NCBI RefSeq assembly: GCF_054482595.1
Contig: NZ_CM137008.1
Length of the DNA stretch: 64,000 bases
Strand: one strand, 5' to 3'
Position numbers: made by a program. This document shows positions 3,001 through 15,000 of this stretch, piece after piece. How positions within the stretch are numbered: the first letter of the stretch is position 1; each line of letters opens with the position of its first letter.

Positions 3001-6000
3001 GAATGGCGAATCTACGCAAGGTTCAGCGACTGGCGCAAAGTGGCGTTCTGGTGGTCAGCGATCGCTTCCCGCAGGCTGAAATTTCGGGCTTTTATTATGA
3101 CGGACCGGGGATCGGCGTCGAACGTGCGACCGGGAAAATAAGCATGTTTCTGGCGCAGCGCGAACGGCGTTTATACCAACAAATGGCGCAATATCGCCCG
3201 GAATTAATTATTCGCCTGGGCATTGATATTGAGACTGCCATCTCCCGCAAGCCTGACCATGACTATGCCGAGCTGCAGGACAAAATCAGTGTTATGTCGA
3301 CGATTGGCTATAACGGCACAAAAATTCTTGAGATTGATTCCAGAGCGCCCTACAGCGAAGTGCTGGAACAGGCACAGAAGGCGGTTTCTCTGGTTGCCAT
3401 CGTTTCTGACCGCCGAAGTTTAACTTAAGGCTGGCGGGATACTTTTTACTATCAACGATAAGGTCAGGCTGAATTGGCGGGTTTTAACATCAAACATTGG
3501 TTTGCAGATGGCGCGTTTCGCACCATTATTCGCAATAGCGCCTGGTTAGGCTCCAGTAATGTCGTGAGCGCTTTGCTGGGGCTGTTGGCGCTCTCGTGTG
3601 CCGGTAAAGGGATGACGCCCGCCATGTTTGGCGTACTGGTGATTGTGCAATCGTACGCCAAGTCGATCAGCGATTTTATTAAGTTTCAGACATGGCAGCT
3701 GGTGGTTCAGTACGGAACGCCAGCCTTGACCAACAATAATCTGCAGCAATTTCGCAATGTCGTCTCATTTTCCTTCTCGCTGGATATCGTCAGCGGCGCG
3801 GTGGCGATTGTCGGCGGCATTGCCTTACTGCCATTCCTTTCCCATTCATTAGGTCTGGATGACCAAAGCTTTTGGCTGGCGGCGCTGTATTGCACGCTCA
3901 TTCCTTCAATGGCTTCCTCCACGCCGACCGGCATTCTGCGTGCGGTAGATCGCTTTGATTTGATTGCTGTACAGCAGGCGACGAAACCTTTTCTGCGCGC
4001 AGCGGGGAGCGTCGCAGCCTGGTATTTTGACTTTGGTTTTGAGGGTTTTGTTATTGCCTGGTACGTGTCGAATCTGGTTGGCGGCACCATGTACTGGTGG
4101 TTTGCCGCGCGCGAATTACGCCGCAGAAATATCCATAACGCCTTCAAATTGAATCTGTTTGAGTCTGCCCGACACATTAAAGGCGCGTGGAGTTTTGTCT
4201 GGTCAACCAACATTGCCCACTCCATCTGGTCGGCGCGTAACTCGTGCAGCACAGTGTTGGTGGGGATCGTGTTAGGACCCGCTGCCGCCGGGTTATTTAA
4301 AATCGCCATGACATTCTTCGACGCCGCCGGAACGCCAGCGGGTTTGCTGGGTAAAAGTTTTTACCCAGAGGTGATGCGTTTAGATCCGCGCACCACCAGA
4401 CCGTGGTTGTTAGGCGTGAAGTCCGGTTTACTGGCGGTCGGAATCGGTATTCTGGTGGCGCTCGCGGTGTTGATCGTCGGCAAGCCGCTCATTTCGCTGG
4501 TGTTTGGCGTTAAGTATCTCGAAGCGTATGACCTGATTCAGGTGATGCTGGGCGCAATTGTGATCTCGATGCTGGGCTTCCCTCAGGAGTCATTGCTATT
4601 GATGGCGGGAAAACAGCGCGCTTTTCTCGTGGCGCAAACCATCGCCTCAATCGGCTACATCGTATTGCTGTTCATGTTCTGTCATCTGTTTGGCGTGCTG
4701 GGAGCAGCGTTTGCTTACTTCGGTGGGCAATGTCTGGACGTGGCGCTCTCGTTAATTCCAACCTTAAAGGCATTTTTTCAGCGCCATTCCTTGCTTTATA
4801 ACGCAGCCGGAGAGAAATCCTGATGATGAGAAAATATTTCCCGCTTGAGGCGAGCGAGCATCTATTTGTTGCGATTGAGGAAGATGATGTTGTTGATGCC
4901 CAGGTCAGTTTGCCGCCGACTATCGCACTAAGTTGTACCACCGAAATCATCCATGATAATTACGCGTTATGCCTGCAATTCTGGCTCAATGGCGTTGATC
5001 GTCAGGAATTACTTCGTTTAATTCGCAAACAAGCCAAAGGCGATGAGCTGACGACAGACGAGCGTAAACAGTTTAAATACATGCGAGCGCGCTACAAGCA
5101 CCTGCGTTTTGCGCAACGGCTGTATTTAAAGAAGCATCAGGCCGGATTTTTATTCGGCAAAACGACCGTTTTTCTGGGACGTTTTCAGGACGGATTTCGT
5201 AACGGTAAGAAAAATATTGTGTCGTATTACGGCAACCTGTTACGAATTTATTTAAGCTCTCCGGTCTGGTCGTTGGTGAACTATTCATTACGCCATAGCC
5301 AGTTAGAAAGCGTAAGCGGTTTTATTGCCTATCGGCAAAAGCAAATGCATGCCCTGAAAGAGATAATTGCCAAACCGCGACTAACCGGCAGGGAATTTCA
5401 TGATGTGCGAAAAATCATCAGCCAGCAGGTTTCTTATTACGACACCTTAAGATCGCTTGATCCTGAAAATAAAGAGGCGTTACAGATTTCCCGTTTCCTC
5501 GCCGCCATTAATGGCCTGATGGGGGATAAACACGACGACATGGTGGCGGATGATATGGAAAACCGCCAGTCGTATGATGCACCGGTGGCGCTGGATAGCG
5601 ATATTCGCCAGCGCTTAGAGCTGCTGATTTCGCGTTTTCCGCTATAACCGGAGCAATGATGTCATCTCGTTTGATTATTGCGCTGATTATCATGCTCTTA
5701 GCCCCGGGTGTGCAGGCACACAATTTCGTCACTGGCAAAACGGTTACCCCTGTTTATATTCAGGAAGGCGGCGAGCTGCTTCTGAATAGCGACGACGAAA
5801 TTCACTACCAAAAGTGGAACAGCACACAATTGGCGGGAAAAGTCCGAATTATCCAGTATATCGCCGGGCGTAAGTCGGCGAAGAAAAAGAACTCACTGTT
5901 AATTAAAGCGGTTGAAGCGGCAAACTTTCCGCAGGATCGTTTTCAGCCCACCACCATTGTGAACACTGATGATGCCATCTTTGGTACTGGCTATTTTGTC

Positions 6001-12000: not shown

Positions 12001-15000
12001 GGAACTGGACGCTGGAGCGCAACATCGGCTTCCGGTAATGCCTTATACCAGGCGTGGCTTAATACATGCAATTCGGGGTTGTTATGCGTGGCGGCATTGA
12101 CCAGCGGCAACCACTCATCACCAGTGATAATGGCAGCGGGCTGGCAACTTGCCAGTAAACCCTGCAGTTTGGCGCTCCAGGAATCCCGCTGACCGACGCC
12201 CATTGGAATCGCCAACGGGACGGCGACTAAGCCGGCATACTGGCAGGAAAAAAAAGCCTCTACGAACCCGCTACTGGTTTCGGCAATCAGTGCCACGCGA
12301 TCGCCTTTTTTCAGGTTCAGCGATAACAACCGCTTCGCACCAGCTTCGGCACGCGCTTTTAACGTCTGATATTCCAGTTGATCTTCAAGTTGGCAACGTC
12401 TGTCATAAAAATTCATTCCAGCGCTACTCAGAGCGGCGTAGTCCAAAGCATCAACCAGCGTTGGAAAATCGGCATAGCGCATAGGTAGGGAATGCGTAAA
12501 GATTTTATTAGACATATACACCACGAAAAAATTGGATATCAAAAATAAAATGACAATAATGCGGTGGATTATATAGGTATAAAAGATAAATGAGATAGTA
12601 TTTTCATTGGTGTGATATTGAACATTGATTAAAATAATGCTTTAAATCTTAACTCTGTTTATTGTGAATAATATTTAATTTATGAATATATTAAGATAAT
12701 GCCCTGGTGGGTCGCATTAAATCCACAATAGTCATGTTGATCGGCTAACGGTGGCGCTGGTGTATCGTAATTATTCATAAATATTATTTTATTTTTCCTT
12801 ATATTCATTGCGTGGATAGTTAAGGTACCGTCCGTTGCTGTTTATTTTCAGCATTAATTATTTGTTATCCACTAAGCTATGGAACGCGATCTGCTGATGA
12901 TTAAAATTGAAAAAGTAATAAATAAAAACGACTTAAAGGCATTTATCGCTTTTCCGTCATTACTTTATCCCGACGATCCAAACTGGATACCCCCTTTATT
13001 CATTGAACGCAACGAGCATTTGTCTGCGAAAAATCCGGGGACGGACCATATCATCTGGCAGGCGTGGGTGGCAAAAAAAGCGGGGCAGATAGTTGGGCGT
13101 ATTACCGCGCAAATAGATACCTTGCACCGCGAGCGTTACGGCAAAGATACCGGTCATTTCGGCATGATTGACGCCATTGATGATCCGCAGGTTTTTGCCG
13201 CGTTGTTTGGCGCAGCGGAAGCGTGGTTGAAGTCACAAGGTGCAAGTAAGATCAGCGGTCCTTTCAGCCTGAATATCAATCAGGAAAGCGGATTACTGAT
13301 TGAAGGTTTCGATACACCACCCTGTGCGATGATGCCGCACGGTAAACCGTGGTATGCCGCGCATATTGAACAATTGGGTTATCACAAAGGCATTGATTTA
13401 CTGGCGTGGTGGATGCAGCGAACCGATCTCACTTTCTCTCCGGCGCTAAAAAAACTGATGGATCAGGTGCGCAAAAAGGTGACCATTCGCTGCATCAATC
13501 GCCAGCGGTTTGCCGAAGAGATGCAGATCCTGCGTGAGATTTTCAACTCTGGCTGGCAGCACAACTGGGGATTTGTGCCGTTTACCGAACATGAATTCGC
13601 GACCATGGGCGACCAACTTAAATATCTGGTGCCGGACGATATGATCTACATCGCTGAGATTGATTCTGCACCCTGCGCGTTTATTGTCGGCTTGCCGAAC
13701 ATCAACGAGGCGATTGCCGATCTGAACGGATCGCTCTTTCCCTTCGGCTGGGCAAAATTGCTGTGGCGTTTGAAAGTCAGCGGTGTGCGAACTGCGCGAG
13801 TACCGCTGATGGGCGTGCGCGACGAGTATCAGTTCAGCCGCATCGGCCCGGTGATTGCGCTGTTATTGATTGAAGCCTTACGCGATCCGTTTGCCCGCCG
13901 GAAGATCGATGCGCTGGAGATGTCATGGATCCTCGAAACCAATACAGGCATGAATAACATGCTGGAACGCATTGGGGCGGAGCCGTACAAGCGTTACCGA
14001 TTGTATGAAAAGCAGATTTAATACCAGCTAACTCAGGTTCATCTCCAGCGGCACCGCCGAGCGAATCAAATGGTGGCCTTCCAGCTCGATATCGTGGAGA
14101 TTCTTTTTCACGGTCCGCACATGATCGCGTGCTGCGCGCTGGGCGACGTGCGGCAGCCGCTGCAACACCGCGTTGTAGATCCGCGCATGCTGGCGATCGA
14201 TCTGCTTTTTTTGCTGTGGTCGATGGTAGAGATTATTTACGCTGGCAAACACTGAATTAAACATCAGGTCGGTCAATGATTGCAGCGTAAACACCAGCAC
14301 CTGATTGTGAGAAGCCTGACAAATGGCGAGATGGAAAGCGTGATCCAACTGCGCATGTTCGATCAGCGAAATCTCTTTGTTGTTCTCACTGGCGGCGAGC
14401 ATTTTTTCATAACAGCGGGTTATCACAACAAAATCAGCCTGCGTTCCCAGCGTTGCCGCAAGCCTTGCCGATTCGCCCTCCAGTAATGCGCGAACGTCGA
14501 GCAGATCGTACAGCGTTCGCGGCTGCGTACTGAACAGATGGATCAGCGGGCTGGTGTCCTGCACCCGATTAAGCCGTGCGACACGAGAATCGCGACCCTG
14601 CGCCGTTTCAATAATCCCGCGCCCGCGCAGCACGGTCAGCCCTTCACGCAGTGCGGAGCGTGAGAAGCCGAGCTTTTCACACAGTCGACGTTCCGAGGGA
14701 AGCGGCTGACCGACCTTCAGTACGCCGTCGATAATTAACCGTTCGATACTCTCTGCAACCACTTCGCAAATAGGGCGACGTTCATCTTTCATTCCCGGAC
14801 CTCGTGCACAGGTAGGACCAATTTTTCTGTACTTAACTCGCAAAACACGCACATCACGTAAGTGATTATGTTACATCAATTTAACATTGAGTTAACCAAG
14901 ACAAGGTCACAGAGCTGGAAAAAAAATGGTCTGACCGGTAGCTAAAGAGATAGACGAAAACGAAAAGCCCGCTTAATAACTGTTCACAGAAGCAGCGCGC

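Follow-up and report, generated by a model that had tools for sequence, protein, structure and literature searches.

A Highly Probable Sphingolipid (Ceramide) Synthesis and Export Locus in Escherichia and the IS5-associated Loss of Its Core from K-12

Results

Gene layout of the locus

The window, a 64,000 nucleotide stretch of the Escherichia coli XH990 genome, was analyzed. Positions 3474–14021 extend exactly from the start of yghQ (3474–4823, + strand) to the end of yghO (12879–14021, + strand), and eight intact genes lie between these two (span 4823–12482). The conserved module is larger. It consists of 13 genes at positions 1059–14021 and takes in yghT, yghS and yghR.

yghT (1059–1751, − strand), yghS (1925–2638, + strand) and yghR (2670–3428, + strand) encode three thymidylate kinase-like P-loop kinase paralogs. 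yghS is probably the first gene of a + strand operon, with a gap of 31 bp between it and yghR. yghQ encodes a 449 aa MOP-family (Wzx-like) flippase, and its stop codon overlaps by one base the start of an unnamed gene (4823–5647, + strand) for a cytoplasmic protein of 274 aa. Next are a gene for a periplasmic YtfJ-family protein that carries a signal peptide (5659–6219, + strand) and two permease paralogs, the LptF-like lptF2 (6250–7320, + strand) and the LptG-like lptG2 (7317–8396, + strand), which overlap by 4 bp. A hairpin with a 16-bp stem at positions 8394–8428, between the convergent lptG2 and spt, is terminator-like by consensus match only.

The − strand genes are spt (8431–9603), acpR (9603–9851), cerR, also named epi (9883–10797), and aasR (10794–12482). 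A divergent intergenic region of 396 bp (12483–12878), which is AT-rich (GC fraction about 0.40), separates aasR from yghO. It presumably carries promoters for both directions; a promoter scan of this region gave results no better than chance.

Ceramide synthesis genes

Spt is a serine palmitoyltransferase. It scores 599.5 bits with the NCBIfam equivalog model NF047599 (cutoff 500) and matches the S. paucimobilis SPT structure 2jg2 (E-value = 1.4e-111). Residues H137, D210, H213, K244 and R366 align with H159, D231, H234, K265 and R378 of the S. paucimobilis enzyme and are invariant; they comprise the PLP lysine and the catalytic His, Asp and Arg residues.

acpR is immediately upstream of spt, with a 1 bp overlap, and encodes a dedicated acyl carrier protein with a match to PF00550. 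Its accession, WP_000248097.1, is the same in BLR(DE3), a BL21 derivative, and the AcpR of BL21 has been shown to carry phosphopantetheine (PMC9386255). CerR, an NAD-dependent epimerase/SDR-family reductase, matches PF01370 (83 bits) and has GATGFIG and YANSK motifs. It is 33% identical to an ortholog in a Caulobacter metagenome-assembled genome (MAG), which is likewise situated between aasR and acpR. AasR is a fatty acyl-AMP ligase (867.7 bits with the FAAL model NF006624, cutoff 600).

YghO shows no Pfam or NCBIfam match. Open reading frames in the non-Enterobacterales spt loci that were mapped (L023, L026, L041 and L069) are 43%–59% identical to it over at least 98% of the length; among them is the one adjoining lptG2 in the Caulobacter MAG (43% identity, 98% coverage). 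By these sequence similarities YghO is assigned as a bacterial ceramide synthase (aca/bCerS) homolog, with a putative GNAT acyltransferase fold.

The same locus is annotated in BL21(DE3) as ECD_02850–ECD_02854, where the genes are named aca (yghO, ECD_02850), aasR, epi, acpR and spt; the BLR(DE3) region aligns over all 20 kb with 97.9% identity and an identical gene order. AcpR, AasR and Spt of BL21(DE3) have been studied biochemically and are active when expressed (Padilla-Gomez et al. 2022, PMC9386255). AcpR is acylated by AasR, a loading activity reported for the BL21 proteins only, and with the overexpressed enzymes the formation of 3-oxosphinganine alone has been reported. The proteins with which the AasR, AcpR and Spt steps were shown are nearly identical to those encoded in the window. 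The paper covers five genes only; the flippase, the CHAD-fold protein discussed below, the YtfJ-like protein, lptF2/lptG2 and yghT/S/R are not interpreted there, and its main text never uses the term K-12.

In the proposed pathway, AasR would activate a fatty acid and load it onto AcpR as its dedicated carrier, and Spt would use the acyl-AcpR and serine to form 3-oxosphinganine. From Caulobacter homology and synteny, N-acylation by YghO and keto-group reduction by CerR would yield dihydroceramide. Published accounts disagree on which of these two reactions comes first (PMC9386255).

Flippase and export genes

YghQ matches the Pfam family Polysacc_synt (41.8 bits, cutoff 28.2) and shares 26% identity, at 90% coverage, with the flippase encoded upstream of aasR in the Caulobacter MAG. 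LptF2 (184 bits, profile positions 2–352 of 353) and LptG2 (234 bits, profile positions 1–351 of 353) match PF03739, the LptF_LptG family, at full length with the periplasmic domain included. In this the two permeases resemble those of the LptB2FG extractor. They differ from them in being paralogs encoded beside ceramide genes, and a sphingolipid is their presumed cargo. The locus contains no ATPase gene; the situation in Caulobacter is alike, with LptB shared, and LptF2/G2 of that organism bind LptB and are required when anionic sphingolipid is made (2026 preprint, bioRxiv 10.64898/2026.04.12.717747). The same preprint draws the E. coli UTI89 locus with lptF2/G2 for comparison. The YtfJ-family protein (PF09695, 201 bits; TIGR01626, 213 bits) has a hydrophobic N-terminus.

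YghQ may move the finished lipid over the inner membrane, and LptF2/LptG2, with housekeeping LptB borrowed as in Caulobacter, may extract it en route to the outer membrane.

Database names suggest a different substrate. PGAP gives the products as “lipopolysaccharide biosynthesis protein” and “LPS export permease LptF/LptG”, and the LptF/LptG and Polysacc_synt family matches are genuine. It is nevertheless very improbable that the locus acts on lipopolysaccharide rather than on a sphingolipid, as homologs of Spt, AcpR, AasR, CerR and bCerS define ceramide synthesis, profile searches found neither a glycosyltransferase nor a lipid A enzyme in the locus, and the Caulobacter permease paralogs are genetically tied to sphingolipid production (bioRxiv 10.64898/2026.04.12.717747).

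Comparison with other spt loci

A set of 80 spt loci was used for comparative genomics. The five core genes are found together in lineages from Nitrospira to Caulobacter, and lptF2/lptG2 are found in many lineages, with lptF2 displaying 30%–53% identity where it co-occurs with spt. Every sufficiently long Enterobacterales locus has yghT/S/R, yghQ and the CHAD-like gene, in rearranged order, and these are also present in Luteibacter and Dyella; yghT orthologs are located within spt loci of Enterobacterales and Rhodanobacteraceae. The YtfJ-family gene is confined to the Enterobacterales among the spt loci compared. E. albertii and further genera of this order carry the same genes as E. coli. The kinase–CHAD and yghQ–CHAD adjacencies are kept in distant metagenomic relatives, e.g. 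kinase/CHAD in contig L089.

The Caulobacter crescentus locus (CC_1152–CC_1168; CCNA_01212–01226) shares spt, acpR, cerR, aasR, bCerS, the MOP flippase and LptF2/LptG2 with E. coli. The Caulobacter MAG proteins are 24%–55% identical to those of E. coli, and the genes are in the published order. The E. coli locus is without the DAGK/LCB5-type ceramide kinase (CpgB) of Caulobacter, its other cpg head-group genes and LptC2. Instead it has the three thymidylate kinase-like paralogs and the CHAD-fold protein, both absent from the Caulobacter locus, together with the YtfJ-family periplasmic protein.

Thymidylate kinase-like paralogs and the CHAD-fold protein

yghS and yghT carry the database name of thymidylate kinase. 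A canonical enzyme was rejected: scores with TIGR00041 are 22–32 bits against a cutoff of 83, and the dTMP kinase matches of yghT are weak (25 bits against curated cutoffs of 83–193). The AF2 model of YghR has a pLDDT of 88.5 and its best Foldseek matches are thymidylate kinases (TM about 0.5); the predicted fold of YghT/S/R is thymidylate kinase-like. Walker A, DR[YF]PQ and RKPDH motifs, as well as R132 of the DRX motif, are invariant across all three paralog families.

The 274 aa protein is identified here as a divergent CHAD-fold protein, and the CHAD helical-bundle fold was found in it. The E. coli sequence itself has no match to Pfam PF05235 even at E-values up to 1. PF05235 does match 18 of 78 family members individually (best E-value = 1.7e-8), and, among nine scanned relatives that are fused or extended, four are above the gathering score. 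Invariant or near-invariant Arg, Lys and His columns of the family are R88, K92, R95, H105, H193, R196, K197 and H237.

A comparable combination is found in the crenarchaeal PPK3 operon (Saci_2019/2020; Hofmann et al. 2026, PMC12995831), in which PPK3 is a pair of thymidylate kinase-like paralogs encoded with a CHAD protein. Both systems have several non-Tmk thymidylate kinase-fold paralogs and a CHAD-fold protein. YghT/S/R and the CHAD-fold protein could then be a free-standing PPK3-like polyphosphate kinase module that acts on inorganic polyphosphate and merely neighbors the sphingolipid genes. In line with this, CHAD domains are reported to bind polyphosphate, S. tokodaii st1543, which is a homolog of cPPK3, is among the structural neighbors of YghR, and the phosphate transporter gene pitB adjoins the locus. 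We consider such a module unlikely. The kinase and CHAD genes stay with spt and yghQ across rearrangements in several families, and the overlap of the CHAD gene start with the yghQ stop codon suggests co-translation. Other features of PPK3 are missing: neither ppx nor sixA is nearby, and there is no pair of a catalytic and a DRX-less regulatory subunit, since E. coli has three paralogs with Walker A and DRX intact in all, unlike the inactive rPPK3 subunit. The E. coli genes are inside a lipid synthesis and flippase locus. Nor are the kinases specifically related in sequence to the cPPK3 structure; with the family profile, canonical thymidylate kinases obtain a better score (E-value = 2e-6) than st1543 (E-value = 0.016).

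YghT/S/R, the CHAD-fold protein and YghQ accompany spt in both Enterobacterales and Rhodanobacteraceae. This suggests a phosphorylated head group of a kind not yet described, and the role of the kinases and the CHAD-fold protein would most likely be to make or handle a sphingolipid head group that contains phosphate.

Deletion of the locus core in K-12

The original prediction was that the genes between yghQ and yghO are deleted in K-12, with glcC, yghO, IS5, yghQ as the K-12 order. This order agrees with the MG1655 annotation. When the window is aligned by blastn with MG1655 (NC_000913.3), where intact genes would have spoken against the prediction, two blocks result, 1–4542 (98.1% identity) and 12921–21064 (98.9% identity). 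The MG1655 gap between them is 1,196 bases and contains the 1,195-bp IS5LO/insH9, which is annotated between yghO and yghQ and is among the 11 IS5 copies of BW25113. Thus positions 4543–12920 of the window are replaced in K-12 by a single IS5. The missing 8,378 bp is slightly less than the 9 kb or so of functional genes that had been predicted. The genes are intact in the window.

The eight internal genes, i.e. those for the CHAD-fold and YtfJ-family proteins, lptF2, lptG2, spt, acpR, cerR and aasR, are absent from K-12, as is the aasR–yghO intergenic region, and both flanking genes are truncated. In K-12 yghQ, codon 356 is TAG where the window has CAG, so that codons 1–355 of 449 are retained. 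Of yghO, K-12 is missing codons 1–14 and the promoter region; the annotated start of the gene is within IS5, giving an IS5-derived N-terminus. K-12 was also predicted to lack the whole system. This is correct for the eight genes, but yghT, yghS and yghR are intact in K-12 (229 of 230 YghT residues in MG1655 are the same as in the window) and are left there as orphans.

In K-12, IS5 has TTAG as its left and TTAA as its right flanking 4-mer; there is no matching 4-bp target duplication. The undeleted B strain (BLR(DE3)) has an intact segment and a left flank with 99.96% identity to that of K-12; TTAA is also present in its sequence, and the left site reads TCAG there. A simple IS5 insertion was rejected in view of the unlike flanks and the loss of 8,378 bp of host DNA. 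K-12 has lost the core of the sphingolipid locus by an IS5-associated deletion.

The presence/absence polymorphism, and nothing further, would fit the reverse course, in which the K-12 state is ancestral and other strains have acquired the segment as an island. This is hardly conceivable: both K-12 junctions interrupt open reading frames, the IS5 is without a matching target duplication, and E. albertii and further Enterobacterales genera have the same genes.

Distribution and selection in E. coli

Of 5,426 complete E. coli genomes, 4,063 (75%) carry 80% or more of the segment, and about 25% are without it; the intact state is the commoner one. The full-length K-12 junction is found in 347 genomes, and all 40 junction genomes among the matches listed are K-12-type strains. 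K-12, the EHEC-like strain 106 and G3/10 represent independent losses of the locus.

Such repeated losses raise the question of a silent, decaying relic without a product, whose loss from K-12 was inconsequential. No report of a native sphingolipid from any E. coli was found in the literature, and the AT-rich divergent promoter region would fit silencing. A relic is quite unlikely, however. All 13 open reading frames are intact in XH990, BLR(DE3) and Nissle 1917, and between XH990 and Nissle 1917 the dN/dS values of 12 of the 13 genes are 0.06–0.21, which indicates purifying selection (acpR has no synonymous differences in this comparison). In addition, three quarters of the complete genomes keep the segment, and the BL21 enzymes are active on expression (PMC9386255).

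Discussion

Positions 1059–14021 very probably form the locus by which Escherichia makes and exports a sphingolipid (ceramide), and the core of this locus was lost in K-12 by an IS5-associated deletion. Most E. coli carry this ceramide-type lipid cluster, and the laboratory strain K-12 has lost its core. The K-12 loss is confirmed, yet, like the sphingolipid assignment, it concerns an already known and published locus. The suggestion that the system is poorly characterised is now only partly true, in view of the BL21(DE3) AcpR/AasR/Spt biochemistry and the Caulobacter LptF2/G2 work. What is added here is the extent of the 13-gene module, with yghT, yghS and yghR included, and the co-occurrence of the kinases, the CHAD-fold protein and YghQ with spt, which suggests a phosphorylated head group. 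We infer the roles of YghQ, the kinases and the CHAD-like and YtfJ-like proteins solely from gene neighborhood and fold.

The enterobacterial and rhodanobacterial loci might encode a new head-group path, in which three active kinases (YghT/S/R) and a phosphate chain-binding CHAD protein, coupled to YghQ, put a di-, oligo- or polyphosphate on ceramide. This more specific proposal is doubtful; a possible variant has polyphosphate as the phosphoryl donor. If a polyphosphate-type head group is indeed made, it would give a strongly anionic outer-membrane lipid that is missing in K-12, which has the orphan kinases only.

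Gene content of the locus in strain XH990

Over its first 20 kb, the window is 100% identical to the chromosome of the urine isolate E. coli XH990. The RefSeq gene order is pitB, yghT, yghS, yghR, yghQ (3474–4823), an unnamed 274-aa gene, a YtfJ-family gene, “lptF”, “lptG” (here lptF2 and lptG2), spt, an acyl carrier protein gene (acpR), an epimerase-family gene (cerR or epi), a fatty acyl-AMP ligase gene (aasR), yghO (12879–14021), glcC and glcDEFGB. The yghQ start and the yghO end are the exact limits of the segment 3474–14021, and every gene inside it is open. A promoter and terminator scan of the locus gave counts at chance level, the single notable element being the lptG2/spt hairpin, and an Rfam search gave no family within the locus.

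Deletion of the segment in K-12

The order in MG1655 (NC_000913.3) is glcC, yghO, IS5LO/insH9, yghQ, yghR, yghS, yghT, pitB. Blastn aligns MG1655 with window positions 1–4542 and 12921–21064, with a 1,195-bp IS5 between these blocks, and 8,378 bp (4543–12920) are missing. The original prediction, which gave glcC, yghO, IS5 and yghQ in that order for K-12 and held that a segment intact here between yghQ and yghO is deleted there, is thus borne out. Both border genes are damaged in K-12. In YghQ, codon 356 of 449 is a TAG stop instead of the CAG seen in the window. YghO lacks codons 1–14 as well as its upstream region, and its annotated start consists of 24 residues read from inside IS5.

The 4-mers on either side of the K-12 IS5 are TTAG and TTAA. 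In the B-strain sequence, which shares 99.96% identity with K-12 in the left flank, the left site reads TCAG and the right site TTAA. A simple IS5 insertion with target duplication would leave identical flanks; as the flanking 4-mers differ and 8,378 bp are gone, the K-12 event is an IS5-associated deletion. It could have come about either by recombination of two IS5 copies or by an IS5-mediated adjacent deletion. A search with synthetic 200-bp junction queries found IS5 at either K-12 junction with the cluster still present in none of 5,426 genomes, and therefore does not favor one route over the other.

In a study of K-12 adaptation to chlorhexidine, many SNVs were reported in yghQ, with a two-fold rise in MIC in a yghQ knockout (PMC8170033). 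The authors do not discuss the truncation of K-12 yghQ (the remnant is equivalent to window 3474–4541). Mapping artefacts may account for the clustered SNVs, which lie beside IS5.

Distribution and conservation in E. coli

Of 5,426 complete E. coli genomes, 4,063 contain 80% or more of the segment that K-12 lacks, BLR(DE3) and Nissle 1917 among them. With the K-12 alignment, this confirms the initial observation and supports its interpretation that the laboratory reference strain lacks this system, though not the whole of it, since yghT, yghS and yghR remain in K-12. The K-12 yghQ-IS5 junction is present at full length in 347 genomes; among the matches listed, all 40 are K-12-type strains, mostly named laboratory derivatives.

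The region has been lost in other ways in other strains. In strain G3/10, yghT is cut by IS1. In an EHEC-like cattle isolate (strain 106), pitB is interrupted by insertion sequences, and beyond it lies an island carrying nleB and nleE. The retrieved locus of strain 106 displays, at positions 13512–28747, a truncated pitB, then an efa1/lifA-like pseudogene, nleE, nleB and espL2; beyond window position 747, no part of window 1–20000 (the sphingolipid genes and everything as far as glcB) has a match in this genome.

A comparison of XH990 with Nissle 1917 gives dN/dS values of 0.06–0.21 for 12 of the 13 genes in the stretch yghT–yghO; the remaining one, acpR, had no synonymous differences. The genes are therefore kept by selection wherever they are present.

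Core sphingolipid genes

Spt scores 599.5 bits with the NCBI serine palmitoyltransferase equivalog model (cutoff 500) and matches the Sphingomonas paucimobilis enzyme structure with E = 1.4e-111. It retains the residues aligned with His159, Asp231, His234, Lys265 and Arg378 of that enzyme. The ligase AasR clears the fatty acyl-AMP ligase model, and the carrier protein AcpR has the same accession in XH990 and the BL21 lineage. Of the BL21(DE3) proteins, AcpR carries phosphopantetheine and is acylated by AasR, and Spt prefers acyl-AcpR and forms 3-oxosphinganine (Padilla-Gomez et al. 2022, PMC9386255); the gene names aasR, epi, acpR, spt and aca (= yghO) come from the same paper. A 2026 preprint (bioRxiv 10.64898/2026.04.12.717747) depicts the E. 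coli UTI89 locus alongside those of Caulobacter and Sphingomonas. According to this preprint, the paralogs LptF2 and LptG2 of Caulobacter associate in a complex and bind the housekeeping LptB, and their deletion is not possible as long as anionic sphingolipid is made. With these two papers, the locus is a bacterial sphingolipid system that has already been published, and the core of the finding is known from the literature.

Comparison of spt loci

A scan by Spt alignment, with one genome per species, yielded 80 loci, which were searched with the 13 E. coli proteins. The genes spt, acpR, cerR, aasR and yghO are found together in lineages ranging from Nitrospira and Geobacter to Caulobacter, and lptF2/G2 accompany spt in many lineages. 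A Caulobacter MAG has the gene order of the published Caulobacter locus, with identities of 55% (Spt), 43% (AcpR), 33% (CerR), 44% (AasR), 43% (YghO), 26% (YghQ) and 24% (LptG2).

The genes yghT, yghS, yghR, yghQ and the 274-aa gene are found with spt in every Enterobacterales locus of sufficient length, and the order of the module is altered in Serratia, a Sodalis-like contig and Rosenbergiella. They also occur with spt in Luteibacter and Dyella (51%–65% identity), where each kinase pairs with its own paralog. Their retention through rearrangement argues that these accessory genes form one system with spt, spanning window 1059–14021 and hence wider than 3474–14021. The short intergenic gaps from yghS to lptG2 (31, 45, −1, 11, 30 and −4 bp) give an operon structure consistent with this.

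Flanking genes vary at the kinase end, where the phosphate transporter gene pitB (window 172–1011 and upstream) adjoins the locus in E. coli and other genes are found in Serratia and the Sodalis-like contig. The latter also carries, at its positions 17823–18182, a DgkA-type diacylglycerol kinase gene (PF01219) between yghO-like and yghR-like genes, with no counterpart at that place in E. coli.

Kinase paralogs and the 274-aa protein

YghT, YghS and YghR are annotated as “dTMP kinase” and score far under the cutoff of that model. The predicted model of YghR has a thymidylate-kinase fold, and the Walker A, DR[YF]PQ and RKPDH motifs are invariant across all three paralog families.

The 274-aa protein (4823–5647, + strand) had no family match and, as with YghO and the YtfJ-like protein, no match to PDB sequences. 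Its family is small (209 representatives among 1.84 billion proteins). Distant and fused relatives match Pfam CHAD, and CHAD domains are described as polyphosphate-binding modules. Some relatives are fused to APH/choline-kinase-like phosphotransferase domains, e.g. P0367 (976 aa) and P0387 (983 aa), so that a second kinase type, unrelated to the first, is joined to the same CHAD-like module. Three kinases directly adjoin the CHAD-like gene in one distant metagenomic contig, and the yghQ-CHAD pair is kept in a second; three further contigs with distant relatives (L090, L091 and L092) were too short or uninformative for context.

The crenarchaeal PPK3 operon (PMC12995831) offers a striking parallel, as it likewise has thymidylate-kinase-like paralogs (two there) and a CHAD protein. 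However, all three E. coli paralogs have the catalytic arginine, the locus has no ppx or sixA gene, and the family profile favors canonical thymidylate kinases over the cPPK3 homolog. Membership of YghT/S/R in PPK3 is therefore not supported by these sequence comparisons. A closer relation of YghR to PPK2/PPK3 than to thymidylate kinase was also rejected, as its 50 best Foldseek hits include no PPK2 and the sequence comparison shows no preference for the cPPK3 homolog.

The E. coli locus contains no homolog of CpgB, the ceramide kinase of Caulobacter. Homology of yghR/S/T to it was considered and rejected, since CpgB is not a P-loop protein but carries an LCB5/DAG-kinase domain. The thymidylate-kinase-like paralogs and the CHAD-fold protein appear to be the sole candidates for head-group chemistry in E. 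coli, and ceramide phosphorylation is therefore proposed. YghT/S/R would phosphorylate ceramide, possibly more than once, and the CHAD protein would pass the anionic lipid to YghQ. A literature search found no paper linking yghQ/R/S/T to sphingolipids.

Other features of the window

A second K-12 deletion is present at 31241–39236. The type II secretion operon is complete in XH990 (sslE, pppA, gspS2, gspC to gspL, yghD); the MG1655 alignment stops at 31240 and resumes at 39237, with yghF, a short yghE and yghD remaining. The stretch 28650–28820 (~170 bp, between sslE and pppA) gives a second alignment, at 90% identity, on the same MG1655 interval, which suggests a local duplication relative to K-12. 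Two sRNA families reach the Rfam gathering level: C0719 at 21485–21706 (− strand, between glcB and glcA, 299 bits) and IS102 at 49625–49861 (− strand, between yggL and yggN, 74.6 bits).

Consequences for E. coli biology

The labels “dTMP kinase”, “LptF/LptG LPS export permease” and “lipopolysaccharide biosynthesis protein” are misleading for genes of this locus. In K-12, yghR, yghS, yghT, yghQ and yghO are leftovers of a broken system, and knockout phenotypes are to be interpreted accordingly. K-12 is the source of nearly all E. coli envelope biology and lipidomics, yet it is unable to make the predicted lipid. An intact copy of the locus, maintained by purifying selection, is carried by about three quarters of the E. 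coli sequenced, among them B strains, Nissle 1917 and clinical isolates, XH990 for example. Should these genes be expressed in the host or the environment, E. coli would have an outer-membrane sphingolipid hidden by its reference strain. Such a lipid could be relevant to how sensitive the cells are to polymyxin and detergents, to sphingolipid signalling in the host, and to the sharing of the Lpt machinery between two cargoes.
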